Origin: Macrostomum lignano
Taxonomy: Eukaryota
DNA length: 64,000 nt
Direction: 5' to 3'
NCBI GenBank assembly: GCA_002269645.1
Contig: NIVC01000640.1
Location: 434,001 to 498,000 of the forward strand
Positions within the stretch are counted from its first letter, which is position 1. The number at the start of each line of letters is the position of its first letter. The position numbers were made by a program, and so were the translations under genes. Shown piece after piece: positions 5,051-64,000 of this stretch. Under the pieces are notes generated by a model. That model saw only the letters and a program-made list of their open reading frames with translations, ran no database searches and was not told the DNA's origin.

Positions 5051-6181
5051 ATAATAGAGAGGCCAGACTCGGGCAAAGGCCGGAAGATGTTCAGGAGACT
5101 GGCAGGCAAAGAATGGCAGCCAGAATACGAGACGCAGATAAATGCCGATGAAGTTCGACACACAGCGGACCAGCTTGCTTGTTACACCTATCGTTGTTAC
5201 ACAAGTAGGCGCTGAAGCTGCATTGCATCGCAAATTCTGCAACCTCGGTGGTTCAAATTCCAAGGCGCCTTGCCCAGATATGCTGGGGCACCACCGCTTG
5301 GCGTGTTGCACGCGAGAAAGACACAATGTTTCCACACGGTGTCGCGTTACACTGGGCCTCCCCGGAGAGGTAGGAGGGGCAGCTTTCCCACAGCTCCCCA
5401 TGCCTTATCCTCATCAGCGATGCTTATCAAATCCCAACAGCGGATAGAGGAGTCGAGGCTACAAAGTGAGGGGTCGGCCAGTGAAAACAGACAGTGGGAT
5501 CCCCATTCCTCAAATATCCCCTTCCCGTTTTGTATTTTTGAAAACTTTCCAAAACTCCACCGTTACTCGAGGCCGAAAAGTTTCGGGGGGGGGGGATAAA
5601 AGGAATGAGGATCATGGGGAGTAGGTCCCCCCTCCCGGATCCCCCTCGTCCTTTCGTGTCGCTGTTTCTTTCGCCGAAAGAAGAAGAAGAAGGCAGCAAG
5701 ATAAAGAAGCCAGCGGCTGCCTGCATCTCCTTGGCGCTATCGCTGCGCGGGAATTTCGAGTTTTCGAGCTCACTAACGAGCTGCGGCCGGCCGGCAAATG
5801 AAAGCGCATAAAACAGAGGAGGAAGGGAGCTGTTAAACAGACAGGGGGCCTGGGGCCATGATGCTGGATGCTGGGCGCAAGTGTTAAGATCCTGTTTTTT
5901 ATATCCTTGACTTTCTTTCCAGGGCCAGGGGATTTCGCAATTACGGGAGCAAATATTGCCAGAATCCGGGTGCCCGGCGAGCCTTTGAATTTGTAATATA
6001 AAAACAACAGCAAATTTGTTAAGGATTGATGCCTGCTTGTAAAACTGCTGGCACCATGAAATACGTATGAAAACCCCGCAGCAGTAATAAAAAATATGTT
6101 CGTAGCACTGAGTCAGCCGGTTGCGGTGAATGACACTTTCATTCGGGTATTCTGGGTGCTCCTCTATCCTCTATTGTCCCG

Positions 6182-6375
6182 TTCTTGTCCTGTCCTGTTC
6201 TGCCTTGTCCTGTCTTATCCTGTCTTATCCTGTCTTATCCTGTCTTATCCTGTCTTATCCTGTCTTATCCTGTCTTATCCTGTCTTATCCTGTCTTATCC
6301 TGTCCTGTCTTATCCTGTCTTATCCTGTCTTATTCTGTCCTGTCCTGTCTTATCCTGTCTTATCCTGTCTTATCC
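6182..6375. repeat. 10-bp repeat (TTATCCTGTC)n just upstream of the Lhx LIM exon acceptor
   Basis: Visible tandem units. Confidence 0.9.
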
Positions 6376-6418
6376 CGTCCCGCCCCGTCCTACACAGCCA
6401 GCAACTCCCATCCCGCAG

Positions 6419-9400
6419 TCTGTTCAGCGCCCGGCAGTCGTGCACCCGCTGCGGCGGCTGCCTGCACCCGGCGGACCTGGTGATGAAGGCACGCGAGCAC
6501 CATTTCCACCTGGGCTGCTTCACCTGCCACTGGCCCGCCTGCGACCGCCGGTTCTCGCCTGGCGACGAGTTCGGCCTGAGCCTCGGCGGTGCCGTCTTCT
6601 GCCGGCTGCACCTGCAGCATCAGCAGCACCTGCCGCCGCCGCCGCCGCTGCTGCCGCCGCCACCGCCGCCGCAGTTCCTTCTGTCCGACTCGCTGGAAAC
6701 AGCAGAGGCGGCCACCGCGGCGGCGAAATCAGCGACCCAGTCGGAGATGGGCGGCGGCGCCGGCGGCAAGCAGGCGAGCCGCGCTGGCAAGGGTCGGCCG
6801 CGAAAGTCGAAGAAATTAGCGGAGCCACCGGCGACGTCACAGGCTACCCAGCATCCGGTGGCGCTTCATCAGCCGCATTCTCAGCCAGATGAGCTGGGTA
6901 TTGTTCAGCAGCCTCACCTGCAGCTGCAGCATCAGATTGCCTGTGGCTTTTCCAACTGCATTGTCAAGGAGGAGCTGCCGATGACTGCCTCGACAGCGGA
7001 GACCACACCAACGACCGTGACGCTGGCGTCGACACTCGCTGGAGACGCGATGGACAGCTCCCTGGTGGACCTGGCCACCGTGCAGGGCTCCGCCGTGTTC
7101 GGCGTCGGTGGCGACCCGCTGGAGCAACTGGGTGAGCTGGATGACCTTGGCTGACTGACTGACACTAGCTGACTGACTGACACTAGCTGACTGACTGACA
7201 CTAGCTGACTGACTGACACTAGCTGACTGACTGACACTAGCTGACTGACTGACACTAGCTGACTGACTGACACTAGCTGACTGATTGACACTAGCTAACT
7301 GACTGACACTAGCTGACTGACTGACACTAGCTGACTGACTGACACTAGCTGACTGATTGACACTAGCTGACTGACTGACACTAGCTGACTGATTGACACT
7401 AGCTAACTGACTGACACTAGCTCACTGACTGACACTAGCTGACTGATTGACACTAGCTGACTGACTGACACTAGCTGACTGATTGACACTAGCTGACTGA
7501 CTGACACTAGCTCACTGACTGACACTAGCTGACTGATTGACACTAGCTGACTGACTGACACTAGCTGACTGACTGACACTAGCTGACTGACTGACACTAG
7601 CTGACTGATTGACACTAGCTGACTGACTGACACTAGCTCACTGACTGACACTAGCTGACTGATTGACACTAGCTGACTGACTGACACTAGCTGACTGACT
7701 GACACTAGCTGACTGACTGACACTAGCTGACTGACTGACACTAACTGGTTGTTGCTGAAATAACAATCGTAAACAAAAAAGCACCTCCAATTGTATCGCC
7801 AGCCATTTAGCAGTGTCAGAGTCCACCGGACAGACATTCAAGATTCCACTGATTTAAGCAAACTGATGAACAAGCAAAATCCGTGTGCTCGCTCCGCGGG
7901 ACCGGCTTGCGGAAAATTTTGAGCAGGAAAAAAACTTCTTGCATGCACAGGGCGCCTCAATAATAATAGCTGGTTGCAAACTTTCCCACAGGGCTTCCCT
8001 ACCCTCCACTCTGAATGCTGAAGCCTTGAAATAAAGATTGCTTTTTATTGTCTACAAGGAGGAACGGATAAGAAGGGATGGAATTGAGGAAGAAAATGGG
8101 GAAGACAAAAGGAGGAGATGCAGCGGTGCGGAAGGCGCAGTTTCTGCTTGGGAAACTGTTTGGGGAAGCAAGTGGCGCGGGCGGGGGGGGGGCAACTCAA
8201 TGGCGCAAAAAAGTTTCAAACCGACTTTTTTCTATCTAGCTATCTTTCATCACCGCCAGGATGTGCAGGGGGGGCTTTTCTTTGAGTGGCTTGTTAGAAA
8301 TGTTAGCAACTCCCCACACCCACCTCTGCTCACTCAAATAATCCCATTCAAACAGGCGGGAGATCCGTTGGGCAAATAATCCCTGAATTTGCGTCCCCGG
8401 CAATCAGCCAGTGTAGTCCTGTTTGAGGCGGCTGGGGTGAGCATTCTCCCCCGATGCCAGATTCCGAAGTTCACAGGCAGCTTCCTTCGTCTGGGCAAAC
8501 ACCGCCTGGAATGCGCCACTCTTCAGCTTGAAATTTGTGTCATTTTTTATTGCCCCCCCCCCCCGAGTTTTGCCTGCTGGTCGGAAGAAGAAGTTTCCCG
8601 GCCTCGGGTTGCGCAAGGAGGAACAGGCGCAGGTAGAAATACAAGCTACTGCCCGGCAAGTCCCTTTGAGCTCTCGAACTATAGCCACTCGACTATATTG
8701 AGTACTCGTTGGGGCTTCTCTCTCTCTGTCTCTCTTTAGACCTCCAGTTGGCGCAGCGGGGAGCCCTGCTTAATGAGGCGGACCGGCCCATCAGGCCAGC
8801 CGGCTTATTTTGGAGCTCCCATTCCGACGCAAGAGCTCGCCAACTGCGACTACAAGATGGAGTAGGGGAATCTGGACAATCCACTGGATGAAACAATCAT
8901 CGTTTTAAAAACTGTCCCTTCCCTGGAGGCTAATAGAGATGGGGATAGACGGAGGAGGCTGACTTCTCTCTCTCCTCAGGCCGTTCTACTCATAGTAGGG
9001 ATCACCGGCTGCCGCTGGGTAATTGGCGGCCGCCACTTTGGAGCTGCCTGGGGGCGAACTCCCCCTCCCCCATTCGTGTTTGTTGAGCTGCAGTTGAGTT
9101 GATGTAAAAAATTAGCGTGGTGTTAATTTGTCTGTCCGGCCGGCAGGATAACTGATGGGTCTGAGCAGCGACAACTTTTTGTAATAAAATTTTGAAGCTG
9201 GAAACTGAGAAGAGACTTACAGATTCACTGACAGATTCACTGACAGATTCACTGACAGATTCACTGACAGACTCACTGACAGACTCACTGACAGACTCAC
9301 TGACAGACTCGCTGACAGACTCACTGACAGATTCACTGACAGAATCACTGGCAGACTCACTGACAGAATCACTGACAGACTCACTGACAGAATCACTGGC

Positions 9401-11466: not shown

Positions 11467-25061
<13,595 letters not shown>

Positions 25062-42400: not shown

Positions 42401-45400
42401 CATTTTGCCATTCTGCCATTCTGCCATTCTGCTATTCTGCCATTCTGCCATTCTGCCATTCTGCCATTTTGCCATATTGCCATATTGCCATTCGGCCATT
42501 TTGCCATTCTGCCATTTTGCCATTCTGCCATTCTGCCATTCTGCTATTCTGCCATTCTGCCATTCTGCCATTCTGCCATTTTGCCATATTGCCATTTTGC
42601 CATTCGGCCATTTTGCCATTCTGCCATTTTGCTATTCTGTCACTCTGCTATTCTGCCATTCTGCCATTCTGCTATTTTGCCATTCTGCCATTTTTATATT
42701 TTTCAGTTTTCTATTCTGCCATTCTGCCATTTTGCCATTCTGCCATTCTGCCATTCTGCTATTCTGCCATTCTGCCATTCTGCCATTCTGCCATTCTGCC
42801 ATTTTGCCATTCTGCCATTCTGCTATTCTGCCATTCTGCTATTCTGCCATTCTGCCATTCTGCCATTTTGCCATTCTTTCATGCCGTCATTCCGTCATTC
42901 TGCAGCAGAAATGAATGAACAATTGCTCACCAACTGGCTCATAGCCAACAAATTGGTGCACAACAACCGGTCCCTTCTCCGTCAGCGCCACAGCATAGAT
43001 GATTGGCTGGCTGCAGTCCTGCAGGCAGAAGGCCGCTCGAGAATCGCCAAGCGACAGCCGCTGACCGTCCACGGTGCACAGCGAGATGCCCCACAAGTCG
43101 GGGTCGGCCTGGGTGAGCTCTGGGGTCAGGCAGCTCACCTCACCGACGTTACACTCTTGCCGCGCTTGCCTGAGCGGGTGGATTAAGTGCATTATCGCTT
43201 GCTGGCCCAGTCACCGGAAGCTAGTGTCACAATGGAAGCTGCTGTCACAATGGAAGCTAGTGTCACAATGGAAGCTAGTGTCACAATGGAAGCTAGTGCC
43301 ACAGTGGAAGCTGCTGTCACAATGGAAGCTAGTGTCACAGTGTAAGCTAGTGTCACAATGGAAGCTAGTGTCACAGTGGAAGCTAGTGTCACAGTGGAAG
43401 CTAGTGTCACAGTGGAAGCTAGTGTCACAGTGGAAGCTAGTGTCACAATAGAAGCTAGTGACACAATGGAAGCTGCTGTCACAATAGAAGCTAGTGTCAC
43501 AATGGAAGCTAGTGTCACAGTGGAAGCTAGTGTCACAATAGAAGCTAGTGACACAATGGAAGCTGCTGTCACAATAGAAGCTAGTGTCACAATGGAAGCT
43601 AGTGTCACAATGGAAGCTAGTGTCCCAATGGAAGCTAGTGTCACAATGGAAGCTAGTGTCACAGTGGAAGCTGCTGTCACAATGGAAGCTGCTGTCACAA
43701 TGGAAGCTAGTGTCACAATGGAAGCTTATGTCACAATGGAAGCTAGTGTCACAATGGAAGCTAGTGTCACAATGGAAGTTAGTGTCCCAAAGGAAGCTAG
43801 TGTCACAATGGAAGCTAGTGTCACAATGGAAGCTGCTGTCACAATGGAAGCTAGTGTCACAATGGAAGCTAGTGTCACAATGGAAGCTAGTGTCACAATG
43901 GAAGCTAGTGTCACAATGGAAGCTGCTGTCACAATGGAAGCTAGTGTCACAATGAAAGCTAGTGTTCCAATGGAAGCTTGTGTCACAATGGAAGCTAGTG
44001 TCACAATGGAAGCTAGTGTCACAGTGGAAGCTATTGTCACAATGGAAGCTTATGTCACAATGGAAGCTAGTGTCACAGTGGAAGCTGCTGTCACAATGGA
44101 AGCTGCTGTCCCAATGGAAGCTAGTGTCCCCATGGAAGCTAGTGTCACAATGGAAGCTTATGTCACAATGGAAGCTAGTGTCACAATGGAAGCTAGTGTC
44201 ACAATGGAAGCTAGTGTCACAATGGAAGCTAGTGTCACAATGGAAGCTAGTGTCACAATGGAATCTAGTGTCACAATGGAAGCTAGTGTCACAATGGAAG
44301 CTAGTGTCACAGTGTAAGCTAGTGTCACAATGGAAGCTAGTGTCACAGTGGAAGCTAGTGTCACAGTGGAAGCTAGTGTCACAATAGAAGCTAGTGACAC
44401 AATGGAAGCTGCTGTCACAATAGAAGCTAGTGTCACAATGGAAGCTAGTGTCACAATGGAAGCTAGTGTCCCAATGGAAGCTAGTGTCACAATGGAAGCT
44501 AGTGTCACAGTGGAAGCTGCTGTCACAATGGAAGCTGCTGTCACAATGGAAGCTAGTGTCACAATGGAAGCTTATGTCACAATGGAAGCTAGTGTCACAA
44601 TGGAAGCTAGTGTCACAATGGAAGTTAGTGTCCCAATGGAAGCTAGTGTCACAATGGAAGCTAGTGTCACAATGGAAGCTAGTGTCACAATGGAAGCTGC
44701 TGTCACAATGGAAGCTAGTGTCACAATGGAAGCTAGTGTCACAATGGAAGCTAGTGTCACAATGGAAGCTAGTGTCACAATGGAAGCTGCTGTCACAATG
44801 GAAGCTAGTGTCACAATGAAAGCTAGTGTTCCAATGGAAGCTTGTGTCACAATGGAAGCTAGTGTCACAATGGAAGCTAGTGTCACAGTGGAAGCTAGTG
44901 TCACAATGGAAGCTTATGTCACAATGGAAGCTAGTGTCACAGTGGAAGCTGCTGTCACAATGGAAGCTGCTGTCCCAATGGAAGCTAGTGTCCCCATGGA
45001 AGCTAGTGTCACAATGGAAGCTTATGTCACAATGGAAGCTAGTGTCACAATGGAAGCTTGTGTCACAATGGAAGCTAGTGTCACAATGGAAGCTAGTGTC
45101 ACAATGGAAGCTTGTGTCACAATGGAAGCTTATGTCACAATGGAAGCTAGTGTCCTGGTATCATACCGAAAGCTTCGGTTTCAAGCCAGGGACCACTGTA
45201 GTATAACAGGACGAAAAACTAAAAAATCGTGTCCTGAAAAAATACACTGCGGAGATAGGGAAAAATCGTTTTTTCATCACAACATAAATGATTGCACTTT
45301 CTCTGGGGCAGTGAAGATGACTATTTCTTAAATTTATTATGCACAGCATGTAAATCTGTTGCATTTTACATATAAGGGGTTATAGACAAGTGGATAGGGT

Positions 45401-51600: not shown

Positions 51601-54600
51601 AACCCTAACGGAGATATGAAGTGTCGGAGATGTGAAGTGTCGGAGATATGAAGTGTCGGAGATGTGAAGTATCGGAGATGTGAAGTGCCGGAGATATGAA
51701 GTGTCGGAGATGTGAAGTATCGGAGATGTGAAGTGTCGGAGATATGAAGTGTCGGAGATGTGAAGTGTCAGAGATATGAAATGTCGGAGATATGAGGCGT
51801 CAGAGATATGAATTGTCGGAGATATGAGGCGTCGGAGATATGAGGCGTCAGAGATATGAATTGTCGGAGGTATGAAGTGTCGGCTTACCCAGAAGGTGGC
51901 CGGCAGGTAGGCAGCGCGGGCCTCGCTGTCCACAGACTGGACTGAGTGAGTCGAGAACGTGTAGATCAGGCCGCTGAAGGCGCCCTTCAAAGTAATTGAT
52001 TTGGGTGGGCAGCTGCTAGAGTGCTTCGATTACAATAGTGCCTTGAAAACCTACTGGCAAACACTCGATGACTGCCAACTAATTGAACGAGAAGGCCTCT
52101 GTCTATCAGGCTAATAACTTATAAAAAGCTGCAATTCGATCAACTGGAAGATTGGATGTTGTAGAAAAGTGTTGTAGACCCGCAGTTAGCAATTCAGCCA
52201 GCTCGAGAACCCCTGACACAGATACGTGCGCAGCTGGCATGCGCTACGACCGGAGTGTACTGCGGCCCTCGCTTCCACCCCTCCCCCTCATTCGAAAGCT
52301 CGGAATTTCACAAGATAGACATTCATATCATCAACATTTCAAGTTTCAAGTACACCAGCAAAACTTCTTGACGGCGTGAAATTTCGAGTTATTAGGTCTC
52401 ATGGGTGTCAGTGCTCGGACAGGATCCCGTCTGAAATTCCGATGTCAGGAAATCCCGATTAACAGTACATTCCTGCTGTTTTCTAATCGTTTTATTTTAT
52501 ATTACTAGATTTAGATTTAGATAATTAGATTTTAATGGAGTGCAAGAAGGAAAATGATGTTCTGATTGTGACTATTTTTCAAATCCCATTCCAACTTGTC
52601 CCGGGATTCCCATTCCGACTTGTCCCGAGATCCCCGTCCCGAATTGTCCCGAGATCCCGTCCGGAATTTTCTCGAGATCCCGTCCCGACTTGTCCCCAGA
52701 TCCCATCCCGACCTTTCCCGAGATCCCGTCCCGACTTGTCCCCAGATCCCATCCCGACCTTTCCCGAGATCCCGTCCCGACTTGTCCCGAGATCCCCGTC
52801 CCGAATTGTCTCGAGATCCCCGTCCGGAATTTTCTCGAGATCCCCGTCCCGAATTGTCCCGAGATCCCCCGTCCGGAATTTTCTCGAGATCCCGTCCCGA
52901 CCTTTCCCGAGATCCCGTCCCGACTTGTCCCGAGATCCCATTCCGACTTGTCCCCAGTCGCACGGCAAGTCGAGGCACGAACCACTAAAGTAATGCGGCC
53001 GCGACCGGAAGTGCTTGACAAACTCGGGTATAGAAGCTGTCTGCATGGCTACAAAGCATCGGCAACCTACCAGAAGCCCGTCCAGGGTGAAGGCGCAGGC
53101 GGAAGCGAAGGCCAGCACGAGGTAGGCGGAAGGACCCTCTTCGCGTCTGTCTTCCAGCTCATCTGCAATGGGTGCAGCAGTGCGGCATTGAGAATATGCA
53201 TGTAGGCTAACCAATAGTGATATCAATTTTCACGGCAAACTTTCAACCATCGATAACTGTACCTTCTTGTTCGGTGCCACGAGAGACCTCCTGGGTCCAG
53301 CCTTCCTTGTAGGACAGGTAGAACATCGACAGCATGATGGGGATCTGCGGTTGCAATTGAGTTGTGTGTAGATTCTTTCTCATCGGTTAGCATAAAATCT
53401 AGCCTGTTATTTACAACCCGACTTTGTCCCTGTCTCCACCTCACTCATTGTCTCTCTACCTCACTCCCTGTCTCTCCAGCCCACTCCCTGTCTTTCCACC
53501 TCACTAATTGTTTCTCCAGCCCACTCCCTGTCTCTCCACCTCACTCCCTGTCTCTCCACCTCACTCCCTGTCTCTCCACCTCACTCCCTGTCTCTCCAGC
53601 CCACTCTCTATCTTTCCACCTCACTAATTGTTTCTCCATCCCACTCCCTGTCTCTCCACCTCACTCCCTGTCTCTCCACCTCACTCCTTGTCTCTCCACC
53701 TCACTCCCTGTCTCTCCAGCCCACTCCCTGTCTCTCCACCTCACTCCCTGTCTCTCCAGCCCACTCCCTGTCTCTCCACCTCACTCCCTGTCTCTCCACC
53801 CCACTCCCTGTCTCTCCACCTCACTCCGTCTCTCCACCCCACTCTCTGTCTCTCCACCTCACTCCCTGTCTCTCCACCCCACTCTCTATCTTTCCACCTC
53901 ACTCCCTGTCTCTCCAGCCCACTCCCTGTCTCTCCACCTCACTCCCTGTCTCTCCAGCCCACTCCCTATCTTTCCACCTCACTCCTTGTCTCTCCACCTC
54001 ACTCTCTGTCTCTCCACCTCACTCCCTGTCTCTCCACCCCACTCTCTATCTTTCCACCTCACTAACTGTCTCTCCACCCCACTCCCTGTCTCTCCACCTC
54101 ACTCCCTGTCTCTCCAGCCCACTCCCTATCTTTCCACCTCACTCCTTGTCTCTCCACCTCACTCTCTGTCTCTCCACCCCATCTCATTCCAGTCTCCAAG
54201 CCAGCCTCCCTGCGCCCACCTGTAGGACAGCGATGACGTAGAACGGATACCGGACGCGAGACAGCATCTCGCCCAGAGCCGGGTCCCTCTGCACAATGTC
54301 GCTAAGTGACTCGGCAGAGATGGCGGACTCCAGCTCCTCGGGCAGGGAGCAGTTGCTCCACTGGCGGAACAGCGGCTTTGACATGAAGCTGCCGATAATC
54401 AGCGGTGACACCAGCGCGCCGACGCTCTGGCTGAAGAACATCGCCTGCAGGAAGGGCCCGGAGCTGCCCCTGTAGAGAAAGATCATCTGCGTGTTGCAGA
54501 AGAACTCCAGGCAGCCCTCGGCCAGGCCCATCAGGCTGAAGATGAAGGCCATGCTTGGCAGGCTGGTGCAGAAGGTCACCAGCACGAAGCAGGTGGGCAC

Positions 54601-54640
54601 CAGCACGGACACTGCTGTCATCACAAGATTGGCCGGCACC
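48661..54640 (-). CDS. mfsd4-like: MFS transporter, MFSD4/NaGLT1-like, 5'-partial; exons 54640-54220, 53344-53263, 53162-53071, 51984-51889, 50143-50063, 49993-49846, 49751-49681, 49056-48661
   Basis: Multi-TM segments with family-like motifs: GLAEGCLEFFCNTQMIFLY...FLQAMFFSQSVGALVSPLI, DGLL|GAFSGLIYTF, LPATFW|GFTLIGRLLGI, FFISHCMPALLALTE, FGEAVLPVLM. Phase-consistent GT-AG introns; TGA at 48661. N-terminal exons were not found within the window. Confidence 0.82.
49079..49620. repeat. 71-bp minisatellite containing GAGCCAATCAGG
   Basis: About 7.5 near-identical units in the last MFS intron. Confidence 0.95.
50321..50628 (+). mobile_element. tRNA-derived CORE-SINE, copy 3 (full length, ATTA-repeat tail)
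   Basis: A box TAGTGGTTAAAGC, B box GGTTCGATTCT, CORE segment, tail shared with copy 2, ends CAATTATTAATTATTAAT. Confidence 0.87.
51605..51885. repeat. 16-bp repeat (TGAAGTGTCGGAGATR)n
   Basis: Direct tandem repetition next to the donor at 51888. Confidence 0.9.
52575..52955. repeat. Degenerate repeat built from TCCCGAGATCCCGTCCCGACTTG
   Basis: Imperfect tandem units in an intron. Confidence 0.8.
53425..54180. repeat. 20-bp minisatellite (CACTCCCTGTCTCTCCACCT)n
   Basis: Direct tandem repetition in an intron. Confidence 0.92.
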
Positions 54641-54924
54641 CTGGGCATTGGGGAAGGCAAATCATTCGGTAATTAAGTAGGACGGGGACTTTGTTTCTTA
54701 GAAAAATTTTGAAGGCTGGCCGAGAGCAAAAATGGAATTACCAAGATAGATAATTTTCTTCTTGATTTCAATTTGATCGACTTTGCCAGTGTCATTGCGT
54801 CATTGGTTCGTGCACTAAATAAACATTCGCTTCTTTGCCCCAACGTGTCCCAATATCTAAACGGAAAAAGTACTTTTACAACGACTTCGGGTGAGTCCAA
54901 ATACTTCCACAGCGCTACTGCGCG

Positions 54925-55536: not shown

Positions 55537-55710
<174 letters not shown>

Positions 55711-55933
55711 AGAGAGGCAACCCAGTCTGTCCTTCAGTGTGTGGGTGTGTGGGATCAAGGAAATTCCGCTATTTAAAGCCCTGGTCTCTGGACCCAGCCA
55801 GTCAGTCTGGCTGGAGCCCATTGTTTGATTTATCCCCAATTCCTTTGTCGGATAAAATTGCAGCATTTTACGAGTGAAGTGGTTGCTTGTACTTTCCTCG
55901 ATAGCGTCTAGAGGTGGCCTGGTAGGTCTTTGA

Positions 55934-55951
55934 ATCCCACCGCTGCCACCA
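55934..55951 (-). other. Primer-binding site complementary to the tRNA-Leu 3' end
   Basis: Minus strand TGGTGGCAGCGGTGGGAT lies 1 nt after the LTR-terminal CA. The plus strand reads GAATCCCACCGCTGCCACCA, the 3' end (with CCA) of eukaryotic tRNA-Leu(AAG/TAG). Confidence 0.85.
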
Positions 55952-55952
55952 G

Positions 55953-56984
55953 TGAAGTACTCTGTTATTCCGGCTACTTCCCTGTCAGTCACGTGAGCTG
56001 CCTACTTTGAGCTCTTGGTAGACTCTCCCAGGAAGTCTTCTAGCAATCCTTGGTAGTGTTGGTAGTGCTGCCACCAGCTCGCTCGGATCTTGTCCTTCGG
56101 TGAGGGAGACTCCGGGCTGAGCGAAAGAAACGAGACACGAGAACTCAGCACGTCGTGCAGATTTGACCGTTTGTACCGGTGCACACCTCGTCAGCGGTCC
56201 TGCCGGGCTCAAGTGTGGGGATGAGGAACTGTGCTAGTCTCTGTTAGTTCGGTTGGGATTTAGCACACTCGAGGACACACAGCCGCAGATGGATCAGAAA
56301 TCAGATAGGTTGGCTAAGGCCTAGCGCAAGCTGCGCTGGACTTCCAACAGAGCAGTTATCAGAAGAATTAACGCACAGGTAAACGAGAGGTTTCACAGAG
56401 GGGGGCGGTTGCCAAACAGAGGCACGAGAGGCCCGTACTTATAGGGTAGCGGATCGATTTCACCATACCGTGCAACACCCCATTGCGCCAGAGTGCGCAA
56501 GGCCGCTCTCACTGCCCCCAATCTGGCGTGAATCAGTTCTATTTTTAGAAACAGGCGCGGAACCCTCAATTTGAGAGGCAAGGACGCCATTCCTAATTTA
56601 GAGCCTGACACCCGAGATTGCACAAGGCAGCGCAAGAAAAGGACAGAGCGCCGGGGCACGTGATCCGCTCCCGTACGGCCAGACAGAGAGTACAGCCAGA
56701 ACTGGCTGGACTCGAGCCAAGAGAACGCAGCCACACAAAAAGGGGGAAGGAGACAGACAAAGAATGAAACAAGGACAGGCTGAGCGGAGAAGCTCAGACG
56801 CTGGGAACGCAAACGAACCGGAAAAAGGGGGGGACAAAAGGGAGCGCAGGCAGACAAAAGGACAACGAGGGAGGGAGAGGGAGAGAGGGAGGGAGAGCTG
56901 CGGCCAGCGGCAGCCAACAGCTCAGGAGGGCGCAGGGCACAGCTGACAAAGGGGGCACCTAACACTAAACTAGTGCTCACTTCA
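55953..56984 (-). mobile_element. LTR (1032 bp) of the Gypsy element
   Basis: Perfect 6-bp inverted termini TGAAGT...ACTTCA. Immediately preceded on - by the polypurine tract GAACGGGGAGAG (56996-56985) and followed by the tRNA-Leu PBS. Confidence 0.8.
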
Positions 56985-57553
56985 CTCTCCCCGTTCAAAT
57001 GATGAGGCGGAGTGCAAGCGTAGCCGCTTTATTTAAAACAAACAAGTTAAATTGTACTTTAACAAAATATAAACTTCGGCGTTAATTTGAGTTTAGGCAG
57101 CATAAAGATGGTAGAGATTGTACCTGAAGGATAAGCATAAAATGCATTAGTGTCGGATTAATACCGGCTGACCTGATTGAATGCAAAACGCGGCAATGTT
57201 AAGTAGGCGAGTTTGCTGTTCGAAATGCGGGCTGACGCCCTACTAAATGCCTATAGCCATGATGGGGGCGTCGGCCCACTAATAGAGTAAAACAAAGGAC
57301 GCCTAAATAAGTTGGTGGGATGCCGGGAGTCAAATGGCAGAGCCCGGGAGAAGGCGCATGCGGCGAGAGGAGAAAATAAAATAATGCAGTTGCGCGCGAC
57401 TTGCGCTTGCCTGGAGGGGGCCCTACCCTCTTTAGAGTTCAAAGTAAGGGCCAGGTTCAGCGTGGCATCAAGCAAAGAGGTGGGTGCGTCCTGGCGACGG
57501 CCGACCCAGCGGCGAGCACACCTGTCAGCGTCAAGGCTACCAGATCGGGCGGC

Positions 57554-60500
57554 TCAGGGCCAGGTGGCCTGGGCGATGCGGTCGGGCAAGTCCGGGACTC
57601 GGCCGGCCATCACACGGGCGATACGGCGGGCCACCGCCCTAAGCACAGCCGGGTGTTCAGGATGGCGGACCGCGGCACCGGCGATGTCCGCACCGTGGTC
57701 CATCGCGGCTTGGCGCTCGATGTCATCAAGAGCCCGCATCTCGGCCCAGATGGGCTCGTTGAAGGAGGGCCATTCGCCATCTTGAGCCGCCGCCACAAAA
57801 CAGCCGGCGAGATGCTCGGCGACGGTGTGGGCTAAGCTGATGGGCACACTCGGTGTCGGCTGGAGGTCGGCGTCATGCGGGTTGGCTGCCTGAATGTATG
57901 CGTCGGCCCTGGATGGGCCCTCAGCCTGGGTGGCGGCATCGATGCAGCGGGGCTCGGCCGGGGAGTTGGGCGGGGCCTGCGGCAGAGCGAGCCGGAGCTC
58001 CTCGGCGAGGTCGCTCCAGCTATACGTAATCTCGTTGGCGTCGCTGAATTCAGCCTCGGAGGTCTGGGTGCCCATGGTCACCGATGTCGGAGCCCTGTTG
58101 GCCCCGGTCACAATCAGCTTTGCGGCCGCTGCTGCAGTTTTACCCGGGGGATCTTCCCGCGGCTGACTGGCGATGGGCTCCAGCGTCTCCGGAGTGGAAG
58201 ACCCAGCCGTAGGGCCGTCTGCACCGAACGCGGCCGCAAAAGCGGCGAAGCTGGTTGGGCCTCCGGGTAGATGCGAGGGCGCGGCCGCCGATGGCCTTGC
58301 AGTGGTCACCGGATCGACAGGTCGTCGGGGATGTCGCTGCCGGTGAGCCTCTGGTCCCGAGCTGTCCCGTGGGTCATCATGACTCTGGTGGCTCGCCGAG
58401 GACCGCAAACGGCGGATCCGGGTAACGGAGTCTTCGCCCGTGAGGTCAATGACCTCCGGCTGCGAGTTCTCCCGTCGCTGGCGATGCCGTCCGCGTCCTC
58501 GGCGACGTCGCGGTCGCGAGGCGTCCCTTGACCGAGGCGTCTCGTCGTTACGGCGTCGGTCCGGCGGCGGCGATCGTCGATTGGGCGGCGGGGACGGGGA
58601 CCGACTATACGGAGTCTGGCCGAGACGCAATCTGGGATGTACGCGCTGGACCCAGGGAGGCCGGGGCGCACTTTCCCATTGGCCGGCAGCCGCGCCGATG
58701 GCGGGGCCAGCATCGGCGGGGCAGAACAGCTGTCTGCGCTGCGCTGTCGCTCGCTCGTCGGAGCTTGAGCGGTCCGTTCGCTTTGGCGGGCGAGATTGGT
58801 GCATTTCTGCGCTGAAATGGTTGAAATTTTGTGTGCGCATGCGGGCGGTGCGACTAGCGTACGTTTGCGCCCTAGTGTCGCTAATAAGAAGCCTCTCTGG
58901 AGGCCTACGATCCCTAGCTAGCCTACCGAAACCTACAGGCTCTACAGGCGCTTCCACCGGAGTGGTGCATGGCGATGGTACACGAGACTGTACCGCAGAA
59001 AAAGGTTCGGGGGGAGTAGGGACATGGACGGGCGAAAAGGAAGCAGCAGGCACAGATGCATTAGAAACAGGCTCACGCAAGTGGCATTCACCATACGGCA
59101 CTGGCTCACGCCGAAGTGCACTTGCCTGGTTCGCTGGTGTCGTGTTCGGTCCACCTCCTGGCTGCACCTCCGGGATTGCCAGAGGCCGGAAGTACCACCA
59201 GAGAGCCGGCCTCACATCATCGTCCTCGTTGTCATCGGGATCTTCGAGCTCTTCCTCGGGAACCGGTGGCAGGGTCGCGGGTCCTGCACCGTCAGGATCA
59301 TCTGGCTGCCGTCTGCGCTTCTTCGCCTTCTCGACTTCGGGATCTGAAATCATCGCGTAGTCAGCGTCAGGAACGTGGAGCAGGTTGCGGCGATGAACAA
59401 CAAGTTCATCCCGTCGGGCTCGCGGGTTGGGCAGTCTACGGCGAATCTTGTAGACTACCTCGCCTTTGGGTTTTACGACTTCGTAGAGTGCTTTGCGGGG
59501 TCGATGAAACTTCGCCGCCTCGTCCGGTTCGAGCACCGGGTTGTTGAGGAAAACTAGGTCACCGGGCTTGAGCTTCTTGGCCTTCGGCAGGTTGGAGTAG
59601 TGCTCGTCTCGAAGTTGCTGATGCAGATGCAGGCGTTCTTTAGCTAGCTCAGTCGCTTCGTCTAATCGGCGCTGGAAGTCCTTGACATAGTCGGGCAGAT
59701 CGGCATACTCCGGCAGCTTCTTGATCGCGTTGTCAATCGGCAGTCGGAAGTCACGGCCAAACACCAGGTAGTGGGGCGTGAATCCAGTCACCGGGTGTAC
59801 ACTGGAGCGGAGAGCCATCAGGCAGGCTGGAAGGAAGGTGTCCCAGTCGTTGTGGTTTCGCTCGAGGAGGCAGGTGAGAACGCTCTTCAGCTGCTTGTTG
59901 AGGTTCTCGACTTGACCATTGGAAGCTGGGTTGTACGGAGTTGTTGTAGTATGTCGAATGCCAAACAGGTTGCAAAACTTCTTGAAAGCTGAGCCAGTGA
60001 AATTGGTTCCTTGATCAGTGTGTATCCAGCATGGTACACCAAAGTCAGGGATCAAGCGCTCCTGCAGGATCTTGATGACCGTCTTGGCTTTCTGGTTCCT
60101 CATCGGATAGGCGAACGGGTACTTCGACGTCGCGTCGCACAAGGTCAATATGTAGCGGTTCCCACTCTTGCTCCTCTGGGCAATAGGGCCTACTACATCG
60201 CAGTGTACTCTTCCTAGTACTTCGCAGACTGGGAAGCTTTGAACTGGAACTTTGTCTCGCCTTCGCGATTTGCTTTCGAGACAGGCACGGCATCTGCTGA
60301 TAAAATTCTCGGTGACACGGGCTAATCCGGGCCGCCAGAATCGTTCTCGCAGTCGTTTCAGCGTTTTTGTCTGGCCTAGGTGTCCACACAGTGGCGAACT
60401 GTGGAGCTCCTGGAGCACCTGGGCATCGAGGGCTTCGGGCAGGACAACCTTCGGGGACTGCTGGCCATCAGTCAGGTCGATCATCAGCAAGTCGTCCTCC

Positions 60501-61303
60501 ACTCGCAAATTCTCAAAATAACCGAGCAGGTTCCGCTGCTCCTTCGACAGGCGCAATCGGGCATCAAACTCTGGCTTCGGGGCTTCGTTCTTAACCAGAT
60601 TGAGCACGTAGCTGATAGCTCGGTCGGCGCGCTGCGCGTCGACAAACTGTTGCCGCGTCATCGGCAACCTCAGAAAATCCGTGAGCACAGCGCGGCATGG
60701 CTGAGGGGTCATGACTCCCGCAGTCTCCGCTTCGGTGGCTCGCCGTTGATCACGCGACTCCGTCTTGTCGGCGTCAGGATTAGGTCGCTCCGAGGGACTT
60801 TGTCTCACAACGTCGGCGTACGATCGCTGATCCCGTTTCGAAGTTCTCATCGTCGCTCTCTTGACAGGAATTTCTGCAGCTGGAGCAGTGCACTTGCCTC
60901 CACTGCACAGCCCAGGCGACTCTTGGCTGTAGGGCGAGACGCAACACGTGAAGCACGCCTCGTCGCAGGCAGCCGTAGCCGTCGGCTCGATCATCGTCGT
61001 CATTGGGTGAGTCTTCTCCTGCACTGGGCGGTGTCGCAAAGGGGGACTCGACTTTCCGCACAGGCGATGAGCAGCTGTCTGTCGGCTCGGGGGACAGAGC
61101 GTTGACCTTGCAGCCGTCGCGAGAGTCTGGCCTCTGTCAACACGGCGAGAACTCTCAGCGCAAAACTCCGGGGAGTTGAACTTACATTGCTGGTCTGGAT
61201 TCGCGTTGTGGGCTGTCATCAGGAGGGCTGCTTGTTCAGTGGCCTCTGAGTCGTGGTCCATGGGCGTCCAGGTTCCGAGATCCGCAGTCTTGGACATCAT
61301 CAA
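57554..61303 (-). CDS. Open 1249-codon ORF: pol tether + integrase + in-frame ~416-aa accessory ORF (from ATG 58804)
   Basis: From the ORF track. Intact HHCC and DDE motifs. A typical integrase tail RLARDRRPPERL near 58900 is followed by a further 416 codons. Confidence 0.8.
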   Translation of the reverse strand: MMMSKTADLGTWTPMDHDSEATEQAALLMTAHNANPDQQCKFNSPEFCAESSRRVDRGQTLATAARSTLCPPSRQTAAHRLCGKSSPPLRHRPVQEKTHPMTTMIEPTATAACDEACFTCCVSPYSQESPGLCSGGKCTAPAAEIPVKRATMRTSKRDQRSYADVVRQSPSERPNPDADKTESRDQRRATEAETAGVMTPQPCRAVLTDFLRLPMTRQQFVDAQRADRAISYVLNLVKNEAPKPEFDARLRLSKEQRNLLGYFENLRVEDDLLMIDLTDGQQSPKVVLPEALDAQVLQELHSSPLCGHLGQTKTLKRLRERFWRPGLARVTENFISRCRACLESKSRRRDKVPVQSFPVCEVLGRVHCDVVGPIAQRSKSGNRYILTLCDATSKYPFAYPMRNQKAKTVIKILQERLIPDFGVPCWIHTDQGTNFTGSAFKKFCNLFGIRHTTTTPYNPASNGQVENLNKQLKSVLTCLLERNHNDWDTFLPACLMALRSSVHPVTGFTPHYLVFGRDFRLPIDNAIKKLPEYADLPDYVKDFQRRLDEATELAKERLHLHQQLRDEHYSNLPKAKKLKPGDLVFLNNPVLEPDEAAKFHRPRKALYEVVKPKGEVVYKIRRRLPNPRARRDELVVHRRNLLHVPDADYAMISDPEVEKAKKRRRQPDDPDGAGPATLPPVPEEELEDPDDNEDDDVRPALWWYFRPLAIPEVQPGGGPNTTPANQASALRREPVPYGECHLREPVSNASVPAASFSPVHVPTPPEPFSAVQSRVPSPCTTPVEAPVEPVGFGRLARDRRPPERLLISDTRAQTYASRTARMRTQNFNHFSAEMHQSRPPKRTDRSSSDERATAQRRQLFCPADAGPAIGAAAGQWESAPRPPWVQRVHPRLRLGQTPYSRSPSPPPNRRSPPPDRRRNDETPRSRDASRPRRRRGRGRHRQRRENSQPEVIDLTGEDSVTRIRRLRSSASHQSHDDPRDSSGPEAHRQRHPRRPVDPVTTARPSAAAPSHLPGGPTSFAAFAAAFGADGPTAGSSTPETLEPIASQPREDPPGKTAAAAAKLIVTGANRAPTSVTMGTQTSEAEFSDANEITYSWSDLAEELRLALPQAPPNSPAEPRCIDAATQAEGPSRADAYIQAANPHDADLQPTPSVPISLAHTVAEHLAGCFVAAAQDGEWPSFNEPIWAEMRALDDIERQAAMDHGADIAGAAVRHPEHPAVLRAVARRIARVMAGRVPDLPDRIAQATWP

Positions 61304-62495
61304 GGAGGTCTACGTCAGCAGTGGCCTCCGAGGTTTTGTCCGGGCGAATCTCCAAGTAACAGCAGTCGGCGTGGGCGTCGCTGCGGAGGGCTGAGGGGTC
61401 AGTGGCCTCCGGGTTGGTGTCCAAACCGGTCTCCAGGCGTTGACTGCAGCGATGGTCGTCGTGCTGAAGGGCTGCTGGCGCGGTGGCCTTCAGGTCTTCG
61501 GCCAGGGCAGTCTTGGCCTCCTTGTTGCGAGTGCGGACCTTCTTCGAAAGGGCTGGTCTTGCAGTGGCCTTCCGGGTGGTGTCCAAGTCCGGCTCCAAGC
61601 TGGTGTCATCATCGTGTCGGGCTGCAGAATCGGGATGCTCAAGCAGCCGGCCGTGCTCAAAGTCGACCGGTGGTGTCTCCGGGCGTCTTGACAGGGCGTC
61701 AGCGTTGGCGTGGTCCTTGCCTTTGCGATGGTGAAGCTGGAAGCGGAACTCGCTCAGTCGCTCAATCCAACGGCCCAAGATGCCTGTGACCTGCGTCTGG
61801 TTCAGCAGCCACAGCAAGGCTCGATGGTCAGAACGAACTTCAAACTTCTTGCCAATTAAATAATGACGGAAATGTCGCATAGCGTCCACGATTGCAAGCA
61901 GCTCTTTCTTCGTGACCGTGTAGCGCTTCTCAGGATCACGAAGTTTCCGGCTAAAGAATGCAATTGGACGCTCGACGCCGTCGGATTGCCGTTGTCCAAG
62001 ACAAGCGCCTATGCGAATGTCTGAGGCATCAGTGTCTAGGACAAACTTCACGTCAGGATCTGAGTTAAACTCAGGCAGAGCGAGAACTTCAGTCGAACAC
62101 AACTTCTTCTTCATCGTGTCGAACGCTACCTGGTGCTCATCAGTCCAATGCTGCCGCAGGCTGCCGATGTCCTTTCGAGTCAGGGCATGCAGCGGCGCAG
62201 CAAATCCAGCGTAGCCGTTGACAAACTTGTGGTAGTAATTGGCGAGGCCTAGGAATTGTCTCAGTTGAGTAACGGACTGTGGCACGGGCCAATCACGGAT
62301 CTGCGCAATCTTGTCCTCACAGGTCTTCAGGCCGTCGGGAGTCACGACGTGGCCTAGATAATGCAGCTCCTTGAGGAACAAATGGCACTTCTTCGGCTTG
62401 ACCTTGAGGTTGGCTGCGATAATCCGCTGGAGTACAGTCCGCAGGTTGTCCAGCTGCTCCTCGAAGGTCACAGAGTGCACCACGATGTCATCCAT
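61236..62495 (-). CDS. RT thumb/connection and RNase H segment of Gypsy pol
   Basis: MDDIVVHS...KPKKC...YLGHVV...LRQFLGLANYY...FVLDTDAS...RPIAFFSRKL...KKELLAIV...SDHRAL...HRKGKDHANADALSR. Confidence 0.9.
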   Translation of the reverse strand: MDDIVVHSVTFEEQLDNLRTVLQRIIAANLKVKPKKCHLFLKELHYLGHVVTPDGLKTCEDKIAQIRDWPVPQSVTQLRQFLGLANYYHKFVNGYAGFAAPLHALTRKDIGSLRQHWTDEHQVAFDTMKKKLCSTEVLALPEFNSDPDVKFVLDTDASDIRIGACLGQRQSDGVERPIAFFSRKLRDPEKRYTVTKKELLAIVDAMRHFRHYLIGKKFEVRSDHRALLWLLNQTQVTGILGRWIERLSEFRFQLHHRKGKDHANADALSRRPETPPVDFEHGRLLEHPDSAARHDDDTSLEPDLDTTRKATARPALSKKVRTRNKEAKTALAEDLKATAPAALQHDDHRCSQRLETGLDTNPEATDPSALRSDAHADCCYLEIRPDKTSEATADVDLLDDVQDCGSRNLDAHGPRLRGH

Positions 62496-64000
62496 GTAGC
62501 CAAGCGCAGTCTTTGGCGTCAGGCCGTCCAGGAGCTTATTGATGCAACGCTGAAAGCTGCCTGGACTATCGTGGAGACCATCGGTAGAACATTGAAACAG
62601 AATTGTCCGCGGTCAATCACAGAGAACGCCGTCAGGTGCTGATCGCAGTCGCGCAGGGGATCTGCCAGAATCCTTGAGCGAGATCCAAGCTAGAGTACCA
62701 CTGGGCACACGCAGCTTCGCGAAGGTCTCCTGAATGTGCGGCAGCGGGTACGGGTGGTACACACACTTGTCGTTGAGAGCTCTGAAGTCATGCACCAGCC
62801 TGATGTTGCCGTCCTTCTTGGGCACTATCAGCATTGGCGAGTTGTAGCTAGAATAAGCGGGCGAATGATGTGCTTCGCCAGCATCTCGTCTAGCAGGCGT
62901 CTAGCTTGTCCTTCAGATGAGGCGGGATCCTGCGCGGTGGTAGCGCAACTGGTGTCCGATCCTTCAGGATGATCTCGTGGGTCACCAGGTGTGTCAGGCC
63001 AGCGTCTAGCAGATGCTTCGAGAAGGCTGCTTGACACTCAACTAGTAGATCTCGCACTCTCTGTCGTTGATCTTCGGACAGCTCGCTGTTGATCTCGACT
63101 TCCTCTAGCCAAGCTGTGCTGGACTCTTCAGGGCTCCTTGGCAAATGTCGCACTTCAGGTTCCGGCGTCTCTTCCAGGTACATCAGGTCGGCAGTTCTAA
63201 GTGGTGTCGCAACACCAACGCGGATGCCCGACTGCAGGAACACCTCGCAGTCAGCAGTGTTGACGACCTCGATGTAGCCTCGACCTTCAGGCATCGTCAT
63301 CAGAGCTGGAGCTGCTTCCAGAGTGTTGCAGCTGGGGTGCAGTCTCGACTTCACCAGCTCGACGATTGATGGCGATCCTCGGTTCTCGGGTGGCCGACAT
63401 CCAACTGGACGGCCAACAGCGCTGAGCTTCTCGGCGGCAGAGTGCACTTCTCGGAGGTGTACACCCGGCATGATTGAAGCTCACGGCGCGAATATCGAAC
63501 GGGAATGCACGCGCCATTGTTGAACTTTAGCATTCCTTGAGCGAAGTCCAAGTTCTGGCAGTGCTCACGCATGAAATTAATACCAAGCAAATTTTCACAA
63601 TCGGTGACCGTGACCAGGAATTCGGTGTCCGCGACGACATCACCGAACTCCACCGGGATGATCACCTTACACGCAAGGGTAGCTGCGTACCGTCGTACAT
63701 GGTCACGCAATCCGGGATAGCATGCGATATAATACAACGAGGCATCCGACGTCTAACATTGGCCCAGGTCGACGCTCCAAGAAAGTTTTTCCGACTGCCG
63801 CTGTCTAGTAGGAAAGGGACTTCTCGGCCCGCCAATCGGCCGGTGACGTACGGATCGGCCTCACGCGCATGGATTTTTGATCATCGGAGGTGTCACGAAA
63901 CCTCCGGGCTCCGCGCCACTTACTGACGAGCGACTGTCGGACTGGGCATTGGCGCCTGCGCAGCCGACATCCTCTTCTTCTCGTGACCTCTCGGAGTCTG

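Follow-up and report, generated by a model that had tools for sequence, protein, structure and literature searches.

We analyzed a 64,000-nucleotide (nt) stretch of the genome of the flatworm Macrostomum lignano (NCBI GenBank assembly GCA_002269645.1, contig NIVC01000640.1, positions 434,001 to 498,000; the window in what follows). Its minus strand carries the 3′ part of a Ty3/gypsy element: reverse transcriptase (RT)-RNase H, integrase, a linker, a third open reading frame (ORF3), a 3′ untranslated region (UTR), a polypurine tract (PPT), and a long terminal repeat (LTR). Judged by its sequence and its relatives, ORF3 is a conserved non-Env accessory module of this M. lignano Ty3/gypsy group. 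The explanation that we consider best, to which we give as a whole a probability of about 0.5, is that the module lies in the pol frame, that the spliced leader (SL) releases an mRNA for it, and that its product would be a nuclear adaptor exporting unspliced element RNA. An initial annotation of the stretch, made from the letters alone, had noticed ORF3 and proposed a separately expressed nuclear protein acting either in RNA export or against SUMO-dependent silencing. Its observation was confirmed and its interpretation partly supported; it missed a splice that would remove ORF3 from the pol mRNA, the IG/SAAAGQ and P-x-LRLG sequence blocks, and an LC8-type motif.

ORF3 and its relatives

ORF3 had been annotated as a frame of 416 amino acids (aa) that stays open from the integrase, and its coordinates hold: integrase and ORF3 form a single open frame of 1,251 codons (57554–61309), with the usual integrase tail ahead of ORF3, as first described. 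From position 59401 to the end of ORF3, a single stop is found in this frame versus 11 and 30 in the other two, and when the bases of ORF3 are shuffled, only 1 of 2,000 trials is free of stops. An initial protein search returned 2 matches among 8,000 candidates, both from M. lignano, PAA48053.1 (P0003), which differs from the window ORF3 by one residue, and PAA89952.1 (P0004). At the coding difference Asp/Val 147 (position 58365), runs X1, X3, and X5 carry the letter fitting P0003, and X15 carries both. Against 1.84 billion representatives, a profile search found 5 matches (P0003, P0004, PAA74962.1 or P0007, P0006, and P0008), and a further search, with 5 matches among 6,889, added P0011, an automated model in which an integrase 97% identical to that of the window over 133 aa is followed by a fourth version of ORF3. 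P0011 was used only where it is colinear with the window; the chimeric automated models P0006, P0010, and P0012 were left out both as ORF3 versions and as splice evidence, and P0008 (E 5e-6, 127 aa) was dropped as a composition match.

Conservation was seen across the 4 versions. Identity to the window ORF3 is 178/371 (P0004), 156/359 (P0007), and 102/312 (P0011), with many indels, and the versions are 33–48% identical. It is distributed in blocks: pairwise identity reaches 0.78 at residues 33–44, 0.81 at residues 54–62, and 0.64 at residues 260–282, falls to 0.36 in the C-terminal domain (residues 321–411), and is 0.17 and 0.11 in the linkers. Such a pattern is that of a selected, fast-evolving protein, and ORF3 is almost certainly under selection.

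No relative outside M. lignano and no host relative was found among the 1.84 billion representatives, and no Pfam family scored above cut-off. A PDB sequence search gave nothing useful, the ESM Atlas gave no usable match, and 0 of 600 pattern matches in metagenome contigs were confirmed. In the open literature, judged mainly by listings, we found neither this ORF nor an internal SL site freeing an ORF from a pol frame described. Extra ORFs are not mentioned in the available part of a study of LTR families in M. lignano (PMC12801592); six 13–20-nt probes had no match in its supplements, nor did the gene ids Mlig002074, Mlig025026, and Mlig008663 in the supplements searched.

ORF3 has no membrane segment (top 19-residue hydropathy 1.31, and 0.95–1.26 in 3 relatives), its N-termini are charged, and it shows no signal peptide or transmembrane anchor and no frame separate from pol (in the window and P0011); as had been argued, it is not an Env protein. 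The description of ORF3 as an Arg/Ser (RS)-rich protein was overstated: residues 63–96 are not an RS domain, because RS/SR dipeptides number 10, 5, 9, and 3 across the 4 versions and pairwise identity in this segment is 0.29. The helical C-terminus first noticed was recovered by AlphaFold2 (4 sequences), which predicts a disordered protein with a four-helix C-terminal domain (helices at residues 322–414, domain-only pLDDT about 65–83). A wide VIA structure search with this domain returned generic bundles alone, its best hit (Z 8.0, rmsd 3.2, 79 aligned residues) lying in the range usual for helical bundles, and Foldseek returned zero hits at E<=0.001 in PDB or BFVD. No Cys is invariant across the 4 versions, and ORF3 has no conserved Cys cluster.

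A probable separate message for ORF3

Ahead of ORF3, the initial annotation had seen an AT-rich, acceptor-like stretch. The acceptor itself stands, with TTTCAG/C placing the first exonic base at 58811, 7 nt before the ORF3 ATG, and a second AG placing it at 58806; the AT-richness does not (the 30 nt upstream are 47% A+T), and the motif [T/C]TNCAG is common, with 25 occurrences in 55950–64000. The M. lignano SL is described as ending in ATG, being carried by 30% of genes, and using the acceptor motif [T/C]TNCAG (PMC8629364), and ORF3 has such a motif, TTTCAG, before its start codon. For the GenBank gene set of M. lignano, the available parts of the source state that transcripts were divided at experimentally mapped SL sites and at mapped poly(A) sites, the SL trimmed, ORFs called with TransDecoder, and repeat-overlapping transcripts excluded (PMC5730564). 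From their ids, the BOX15_Mlig records appear to belong to this set. TransDecoder starts a 5′-partial ORF at the first full codon.

All 4 stand-alone ORF3 records (P0003, P0004, P0005, and P0007) begin within two codons of the Met, and each of the two acceptors fits a record. P0005, an NCBI record identical to the window, opens with Ala-Glu-Met at 58810, the first full codon past TTTCAG/C. P0003 and P0004 open at the Met, and in doing so P0003 (58804) skips an in-frame ATG 12 codons upstream; the sole X1 contig listed over that ATG (58704–59093) shows no difference from the window there. P0007 is labelled partial and opens at His-2 with no Met, which fits a trimmed leader that supplies the AUG, and the SL ATG of flatworms is reported to be able to serve as a start codon (PMC12582326). 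In P0011, the residues FSAEM, which span acceptor and ATG, are 5/5 identical to the window versus 22/37 just before them, and the upstream Met is Ile. These record starts point indirectly to a separate ORF3 mRNA that probably starts at this acceptor, and internal SL trans-splicing is the likelier way in which it would be made. Of the spliced subgenomic RNA first proposed, the start at the acceptor is indicated by the records, whereas errantivirus-type cis-splicing from a 5′ donor gives way to the SL as the likely route. The AATAAA that had been placed just before the PPT is there, 33 nt ahead of it, with no other on the minus strand between 55700 and 64000; the hexamer is common by chance, appearing in 296 of 5,000 shuffled 3′ UTRs.

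A putative intron that would remove ORF3 from the pol mRNA

The partial integrase record P0009 (Mlig008663g1) is identical to the window at 709/711 aa, but its match stops at 59126 and its final residues are Asp-Arg. Between 59125 and 55750, AG followed by Asp-Arg codons occurs only at 56199, with a stop next. AG-Asp-Arg-stop has a single instance on the minus strand of the window and is present in 10 of 1,000 shuffles. The simplest reading is a GC-AG intron, 59125–56200, that would strip ORF3 from the pol mRNA. Both the ORF3 acceptor and the AATAAA lie inside it, and the spliced mRNA would yield Pol alone and could no longer be copied back. A GT donor lies at 59086–59098 (minus strand), where the automated models P0006 and P0012 exit the frame; joined to 58806 it would keep the ORF3 frame and shorten the linker.

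The same region bears on an alternative that we consider unlikely, namely that ORF3 is a long C-terminal integrase extension that steers or licenses integration (by nuclear entry, SUMO-marked chromatin, or LC8/dynein transport) and that the record starts are splicing noise or annotation artefacts. Both the window and P0011 do keep the frame open from integrase to ORF3, a one-codon indel lying between them, and motifs resembling a nuclear localization signal (NLS), a SUMO-interacting motif (SIM), and an LC8 anchor fit a pre-integration complex. Among transcript-type records, in a set from which repeat-overlapping transcripts are excluded, no Pol-ORF3 fusion was found, and that exclusion may explain why fused records are missing. 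However, an extension of this kind does not account for 4/4 stand-alone records beginning at the acceptor, for the conservation of the ORF3 Met and FSAE but not of the upstream Met, or for P0009, which shows the integrase ending without ORF3 by a precise splice.

Conserved motifs and candidate function

The two best-conserved stretches lie in the disordered N-terminal part. In P-x-LRLG, the RLG core is invariant in 4/4 versions. Ligands with the pattern phi-x-x-RLG, where phi is hydrophobic, are reported to bind the RNA recognition motif of ALYREF (bioRxiv 10.64898/2026.07.03.735260), and ICP27 is described as binding ALYREF through SVWSRLGA, with an NLS after it (PMC3017119). The basic cluster first noticed in ORF3 is an arginine cluster present in all 4 versions. 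The same annotation had singled out EVIDLT as SIM-like; the motif is in place and, followed by (E)DS, is kept in 3/4 versions, but it is absent in P0011. SIMs have a hydrophobic core with an acidic flank, and EVIDLT is presumably of the PIAS type. The LC8-type motif lies in a disordered segment with no Pro just before it, as anchors of this type do (TMGTQTSE, DMATQTSE, EVGIQTEE, and EAACQTED in the 4 versions). By the motif rules as described (PMC6607443), many LC8-type TQT anchors do not bind.

The SIM-like and LC8-type motifs raise the alternative, which we think distinctly unlikely, that ORF3 is separately expressed but works against silencing, by competing for SUMO and LC8, both of which are used in PIWI-interacting RNA (piRNA)-guided co-transcriptional silencing. 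Drosophila Panoramix is described as carrying an NLS together with two TQT motifs that silencing requires, with a SUMO ligase in the pathway (PMC7861614), and the identity of EVIDLT in 3/4 versions and of xQT in 4/4 would suit such a role, as would the divergence of ORF3, which is far faster than that of the integrase, as in host conflicts. Yet P0011 keeps IG/SAAAGQ and LRLG without the SIM, and of 5,000 shuffles, 53 contain a SIM-like pattern and 405 an LC8-like one. On balance we lean to reading IG/SAAAGQ, P-x-LRLG, and the LC8-type motif as favouring RNA export over SUMO antagonism. That ORF3 works as a Rev/CERV/ICP27-like nuclear export adaptor for unspliced element RNA is a tentative proposal drawn from these motifs.

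Architecture of the element and other features of the window

The assignment to Ty3/gypsy follows from the order of the Pfam domains, with RT-RNase H 5′ of the integrase, from Ty3 proteins being the closest solved relatives of the RT (E 7.5e-43), and from a PPT followed by an LTR with TG...CA termini and 7-nt inverted ends (Table 1). The 5′ end of the element is outside the window. The 3′ UTR, between ORF3 and the PPT, is 569 nt long. No canonical heat-shock element was found in the 3′ LTR, and no structured RNA element in 59140–58760 (z 0.39) or the 3′ UTR (z -1.18). A contig of run X3 runs on past 55874 into sequence resembling a primer-binding site (PBS). A second LTR-end and PBS-like unit, which we take to be a tRNA-Leu match, lies within U5, 78 nt ahead of the true end; contigs of all 4 runs have go-back joints there (55954–55961 to 55913), and related elements seem to carry tandem PBS units. 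A reading of the LTR as the beginning of a tandem element copy was rejected. Pol is broken across several frames in 61236–63752 (minus strand), where contigs of the 4 runs show small indels relative to the window; sequencing errors may account for the breaks, and the family may be intact. Between RNase H and integrase, a spacer of ~300 codons (about 60700–61650, minus strand) holds an imperfect ~30-residue repeat (LE.DLD...ATA) that also occurs in P0010–P0012.

Elsewhere, the window contains a 162-codon hydrophobic open frame (54184–54672, minus strand) with no Pfam match, which we take to resemble a membrane transporter exon, a LIM domain (E 6e-6) in an open frame at 6060–7151 (plus strand), a 24-nt satellite of ~240 copies (14527–20700), a frame that scores for the LED repeat (43214–45160), and a (TC)n run beside the LTR end (55539–55709).

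Table 1. Features of the element in the window, listed from 5′ to 3′ on the minus strand.
Feature	Position	Strand	Basis
Reverse transcriptase (3′ part) and RNase H	61236–62612	-	Pfam; Ty3 best solved relative
Integrase: H2C2 zinc finger, rve core, weak C-terminal domain match	59384–60439	-	Pfam E 2e-15, 2e-15, 0.011
GC splice donor CAG/GCAAGT, intron start 59125; sole CAG/GYAAGT in 56985–64000	59118–59128	-	P0009 leaves window exactly here
Putative 2,926-nt GC-AG intron (integrase tail, ORF3, 3′ UTR, PPT, most of LTR)	56200–59125	-	P0009 end and sequence
Integrase-tail motif RLARDRRPPERL, 5′ of the ORF3 acceptor	58889–58924	-	Counterpart RPARNRRQPERL in P0011
ORF3 acceptor TTTCAG (58817–58812), exon from 58811, and second AG, exon from 58806; putative SL trans-splice site	58805–58817	-	Sequence, record starts
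ORF3, 416-aa accessory protein (MHQSRPP...IAQATWP*), in frame with integrase; ATG 58804–58802, stop 57556–57554	57554–58804	-	ORF call; relatives
Block GPAIGAAAGQ (IG/SAAAGQ)	58679–58708	-	8/12 columns (residues 33–44) invariant, 4 versions
RVHPRLRLG (P-x-LRLG), best-conserved block; partial match to ALYREF-binding phi-x-x-RLG ligands	58619–58645	-	6/9 columns invariant
Arginine cluster, candidate NLS or RNA-binding stretch (putative role)	58472–58516	-	4/4 versions
EVIDLT, SIM-like	58439–58456	-	Identical in 3/4 versions; pattern in 53/5,000 shuffles
VTMGTQTSE, LC8 (dynein light chain) recognition-type motif	58055–58081	-	QT invariant 4/4: TQT, TQT, IQT, CQT
Short conserved helix and PPNSP	57959–58027	-	10/23 columns invariant; helix in models
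Predicted four-helix C-terminal domain, no known family	57572–57844	-	14/91 columns invariant; AlphaFold2
AATAAA 5′ of PPT, an unproven candidate for the 3′ end signal of the ORF3 mRNA	57028–57033	-	Sequence
Polypurine tract	56985–56995	-	Sequence
3′ LTR, 1,110 nt, ends TGAAGTG...CACTTCA; TATA-like CTATAAG near 56443	55875–56984	-	Sequence
Acceptor in 3′ LTR (first exonic base 56199), then Asp-Arg-stop; CTAAC (48 nt upstream) and CTCAT (26 nt upstream) resemble branch sites	56191–56225	-	Sequence
Second LTR-end and PBS-like unit within U5	55932–55962	-	Sequence

Discussion

In the model that we favour, a single LTR transcript would give rise to three RNAs: the unspliced genomic RNA, which would encode Pol fused to ORF3; a pol mRNA from which the GC-AG intron would remove ORF3 and the PPT; and an SL-capped ORF3 mRNA, for which, in one version, the AUG of the leader itself would be the start. 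Because the genomic RNA keeps its splice signals (the perfect donor, the LTR acceptor, and the internal acceptor), it would need help with export, a line of reasoning that has been applied to Cer1. In the ORF3 protein, the arginine cluster would serve RNA binding or nuclear entry, RLG would recruit ALYREF, and the LC8-type motif and helical domain would allow ORF3 to oligomerise. The Pol-ORF3 fusion, being encoded as well, may also have a role. The most specific form of the model is a three-way SL-based RNA programme in which the SL frees ORF3, in one family with a leader AUG, the GC-AG intron strips it from the pol mRNA, and ORF3, a protein of a new family, carries the unspliced genome out of the nucleus as an ICP27-like ALYREF adaptor; that all of this holds together is rather doubtful.

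Several points weigh against the release of ORF3 by the SL and against its role in export. All RNA evidence for ORF3 is read from the ends of protein records, and arbitrary partial starts occur, since P0009 opens at a codon with no preceding AG. In the window version, the SL AUG is out of frame with ORF3 (offsets 7 and 2) and opens frames of 68 or 166 codons, so that leaky scanning would be needed. The GC donor lies 314 nt upstream of the ORF3 acceptor, cis donors are said to out-compete the SL (PMC4558846), and internal SL sites of flatworms are frequently noise. On the minus strand, neither AATAAA nor ATTAAA precedes the ORF3 acceptor, unlike in an ordinary operon. The frame into ORF3 is open in both readable versions, and a role as a Pol tail explains this directly. 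Contigs of runs X1, X3, and X5, whose RNA status is a guess, span the acceptor or the AATAAA unbroken, so unprocessed sequence exists. Among the joints and loose ends listed for the 4 runs, none falls at 58811, 58806, 59126, or 56199, which is evidence neither way since contigs drop minor forms. As for the ALYREF ligand, the phi position, three before the Arg, is Pro in 4/4 versions and not the hydrophobic residue of such ligands, with Val or Ile two places earlier.

A donor close to the 5′ LTR, used in cis-splicing as for errantivirus env, or an internal pol promoter, as in Oikopleura Tor3b/4b, could also give rise to the ORF3 mRNA, which we regard as quite improbable. Both routes are described (PMC4402516), cis- and trans-splicing in flatworms often use common acceptors, and the 5′ end of the element lies beyond the window. 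However, a cis-spliced model would include an upstream exon instead of opening at Ala-Glu or His-2, joining the GC donor to either ORF3 acceptor gives out-of-frame products only, a promoter has no need to start transcripts at the base after an AG, and the Met-less start of P0007 fits the SL AUG. A neutral open frame that is rich in GC, or an exon captured from the host, is hardly a credible reading of ORF3: a GC content of 0.62–0.72 at all codon positions does reduce stop frequency, and a near copy is read in two frames by the automated model P0006, which makes the existence of broken copies probable, yet the rarity of open shuffles (1/2,000), the block-wise conservation of 4 versions at 33–48% identity, and the lack of any host or foreign relative among the representatives and in Pfam above cut-off all speak against it.

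Cer1 of Caenorhabditis elegans already provides examples of accessory ORFs, of a gypsy protein resembling Rev, and of a retrotransposon mRNA that carries an SL. The Cer1 protein CERV is described as made from a spliced, partly SL1-capped mRNA and as needed for export of genomic RNA (PMC3315495, PMC10309623). Like the ORF3 of our model, CERV comes from a gypsy-related element, is a non-Env accessory protein, and has a processed subgenomic mRNA (with and without SL1); Cer1 genomic RNA must likewise skip consensus splice sites, and nuclear export is a described role of CERV but only a predicted one of ORF3. Compared by description only, the two differ in that the CERV mRNA is cis-spliced, has exons in common with Gag, and carries SL1 near its 5′ end, and CERV has a Cys loop, whereas ORF3 lies behind the integrase in the pol frame with a proposed internal SL site, and there is no Gag sequence in its records. 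The env genes of errantiviruses and Oikopleura Tor elements (PMC4402516) are also third coding units between pol and the 3′ LTR with an acceptor upstream, but they are described as encoding membrane glycoproteins in a separate frame, expressed by cis-splicing or an internal promoter, whereas ORF3 is soluble, mostly disordered, and in the pol frame. Like M. lignano SL genes and operons as described (PMC8629364, PMC5730564), ORF3 has [T/C]TNCAG a few bases before its start codon and records that are cut there; unlike them, its site is within an open reading frame and a putative cis intron, with no upstream poly(A) signal.

Herpes simplex virus 1 (HSV-1) ICP27 and other phi-x-x-RLG ligands, as described, share with ORF3, which is known from sequence and prediction, an RLG in a disordered N-terminus before a basic cluster and a folded helical C-terminal part; ORF3 differs in having Pro at phi and no Trp, and the likeness is one of motif, with no homology shown. 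Retand and other plant Ty3/gypsy elements have extra ORFs that are described as being, like ORF3, lineage-restricted and located between pol and the 3′ LTR, but no sequence relation to ORF3 was found. To our knowledge, plants have no SL trans-splicing.

Subgenomic messages and the export of intron-containing genomes are known for few animal LTR elements, CERV being the gypsy-related case that we found. If the proposed model is true, this M. lignano element adds a further route, with the host spliced leader as an internal gene separator and possibly also as a start-codon donor, and a protein family without known relative. Tracks of SL and 3′-end reads exist for M. lignano, and transgenesis and RNA interference are in place. 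The model also suggests that some of the genes labelled hypothetical in SL-using animals are transposon accessory genes.

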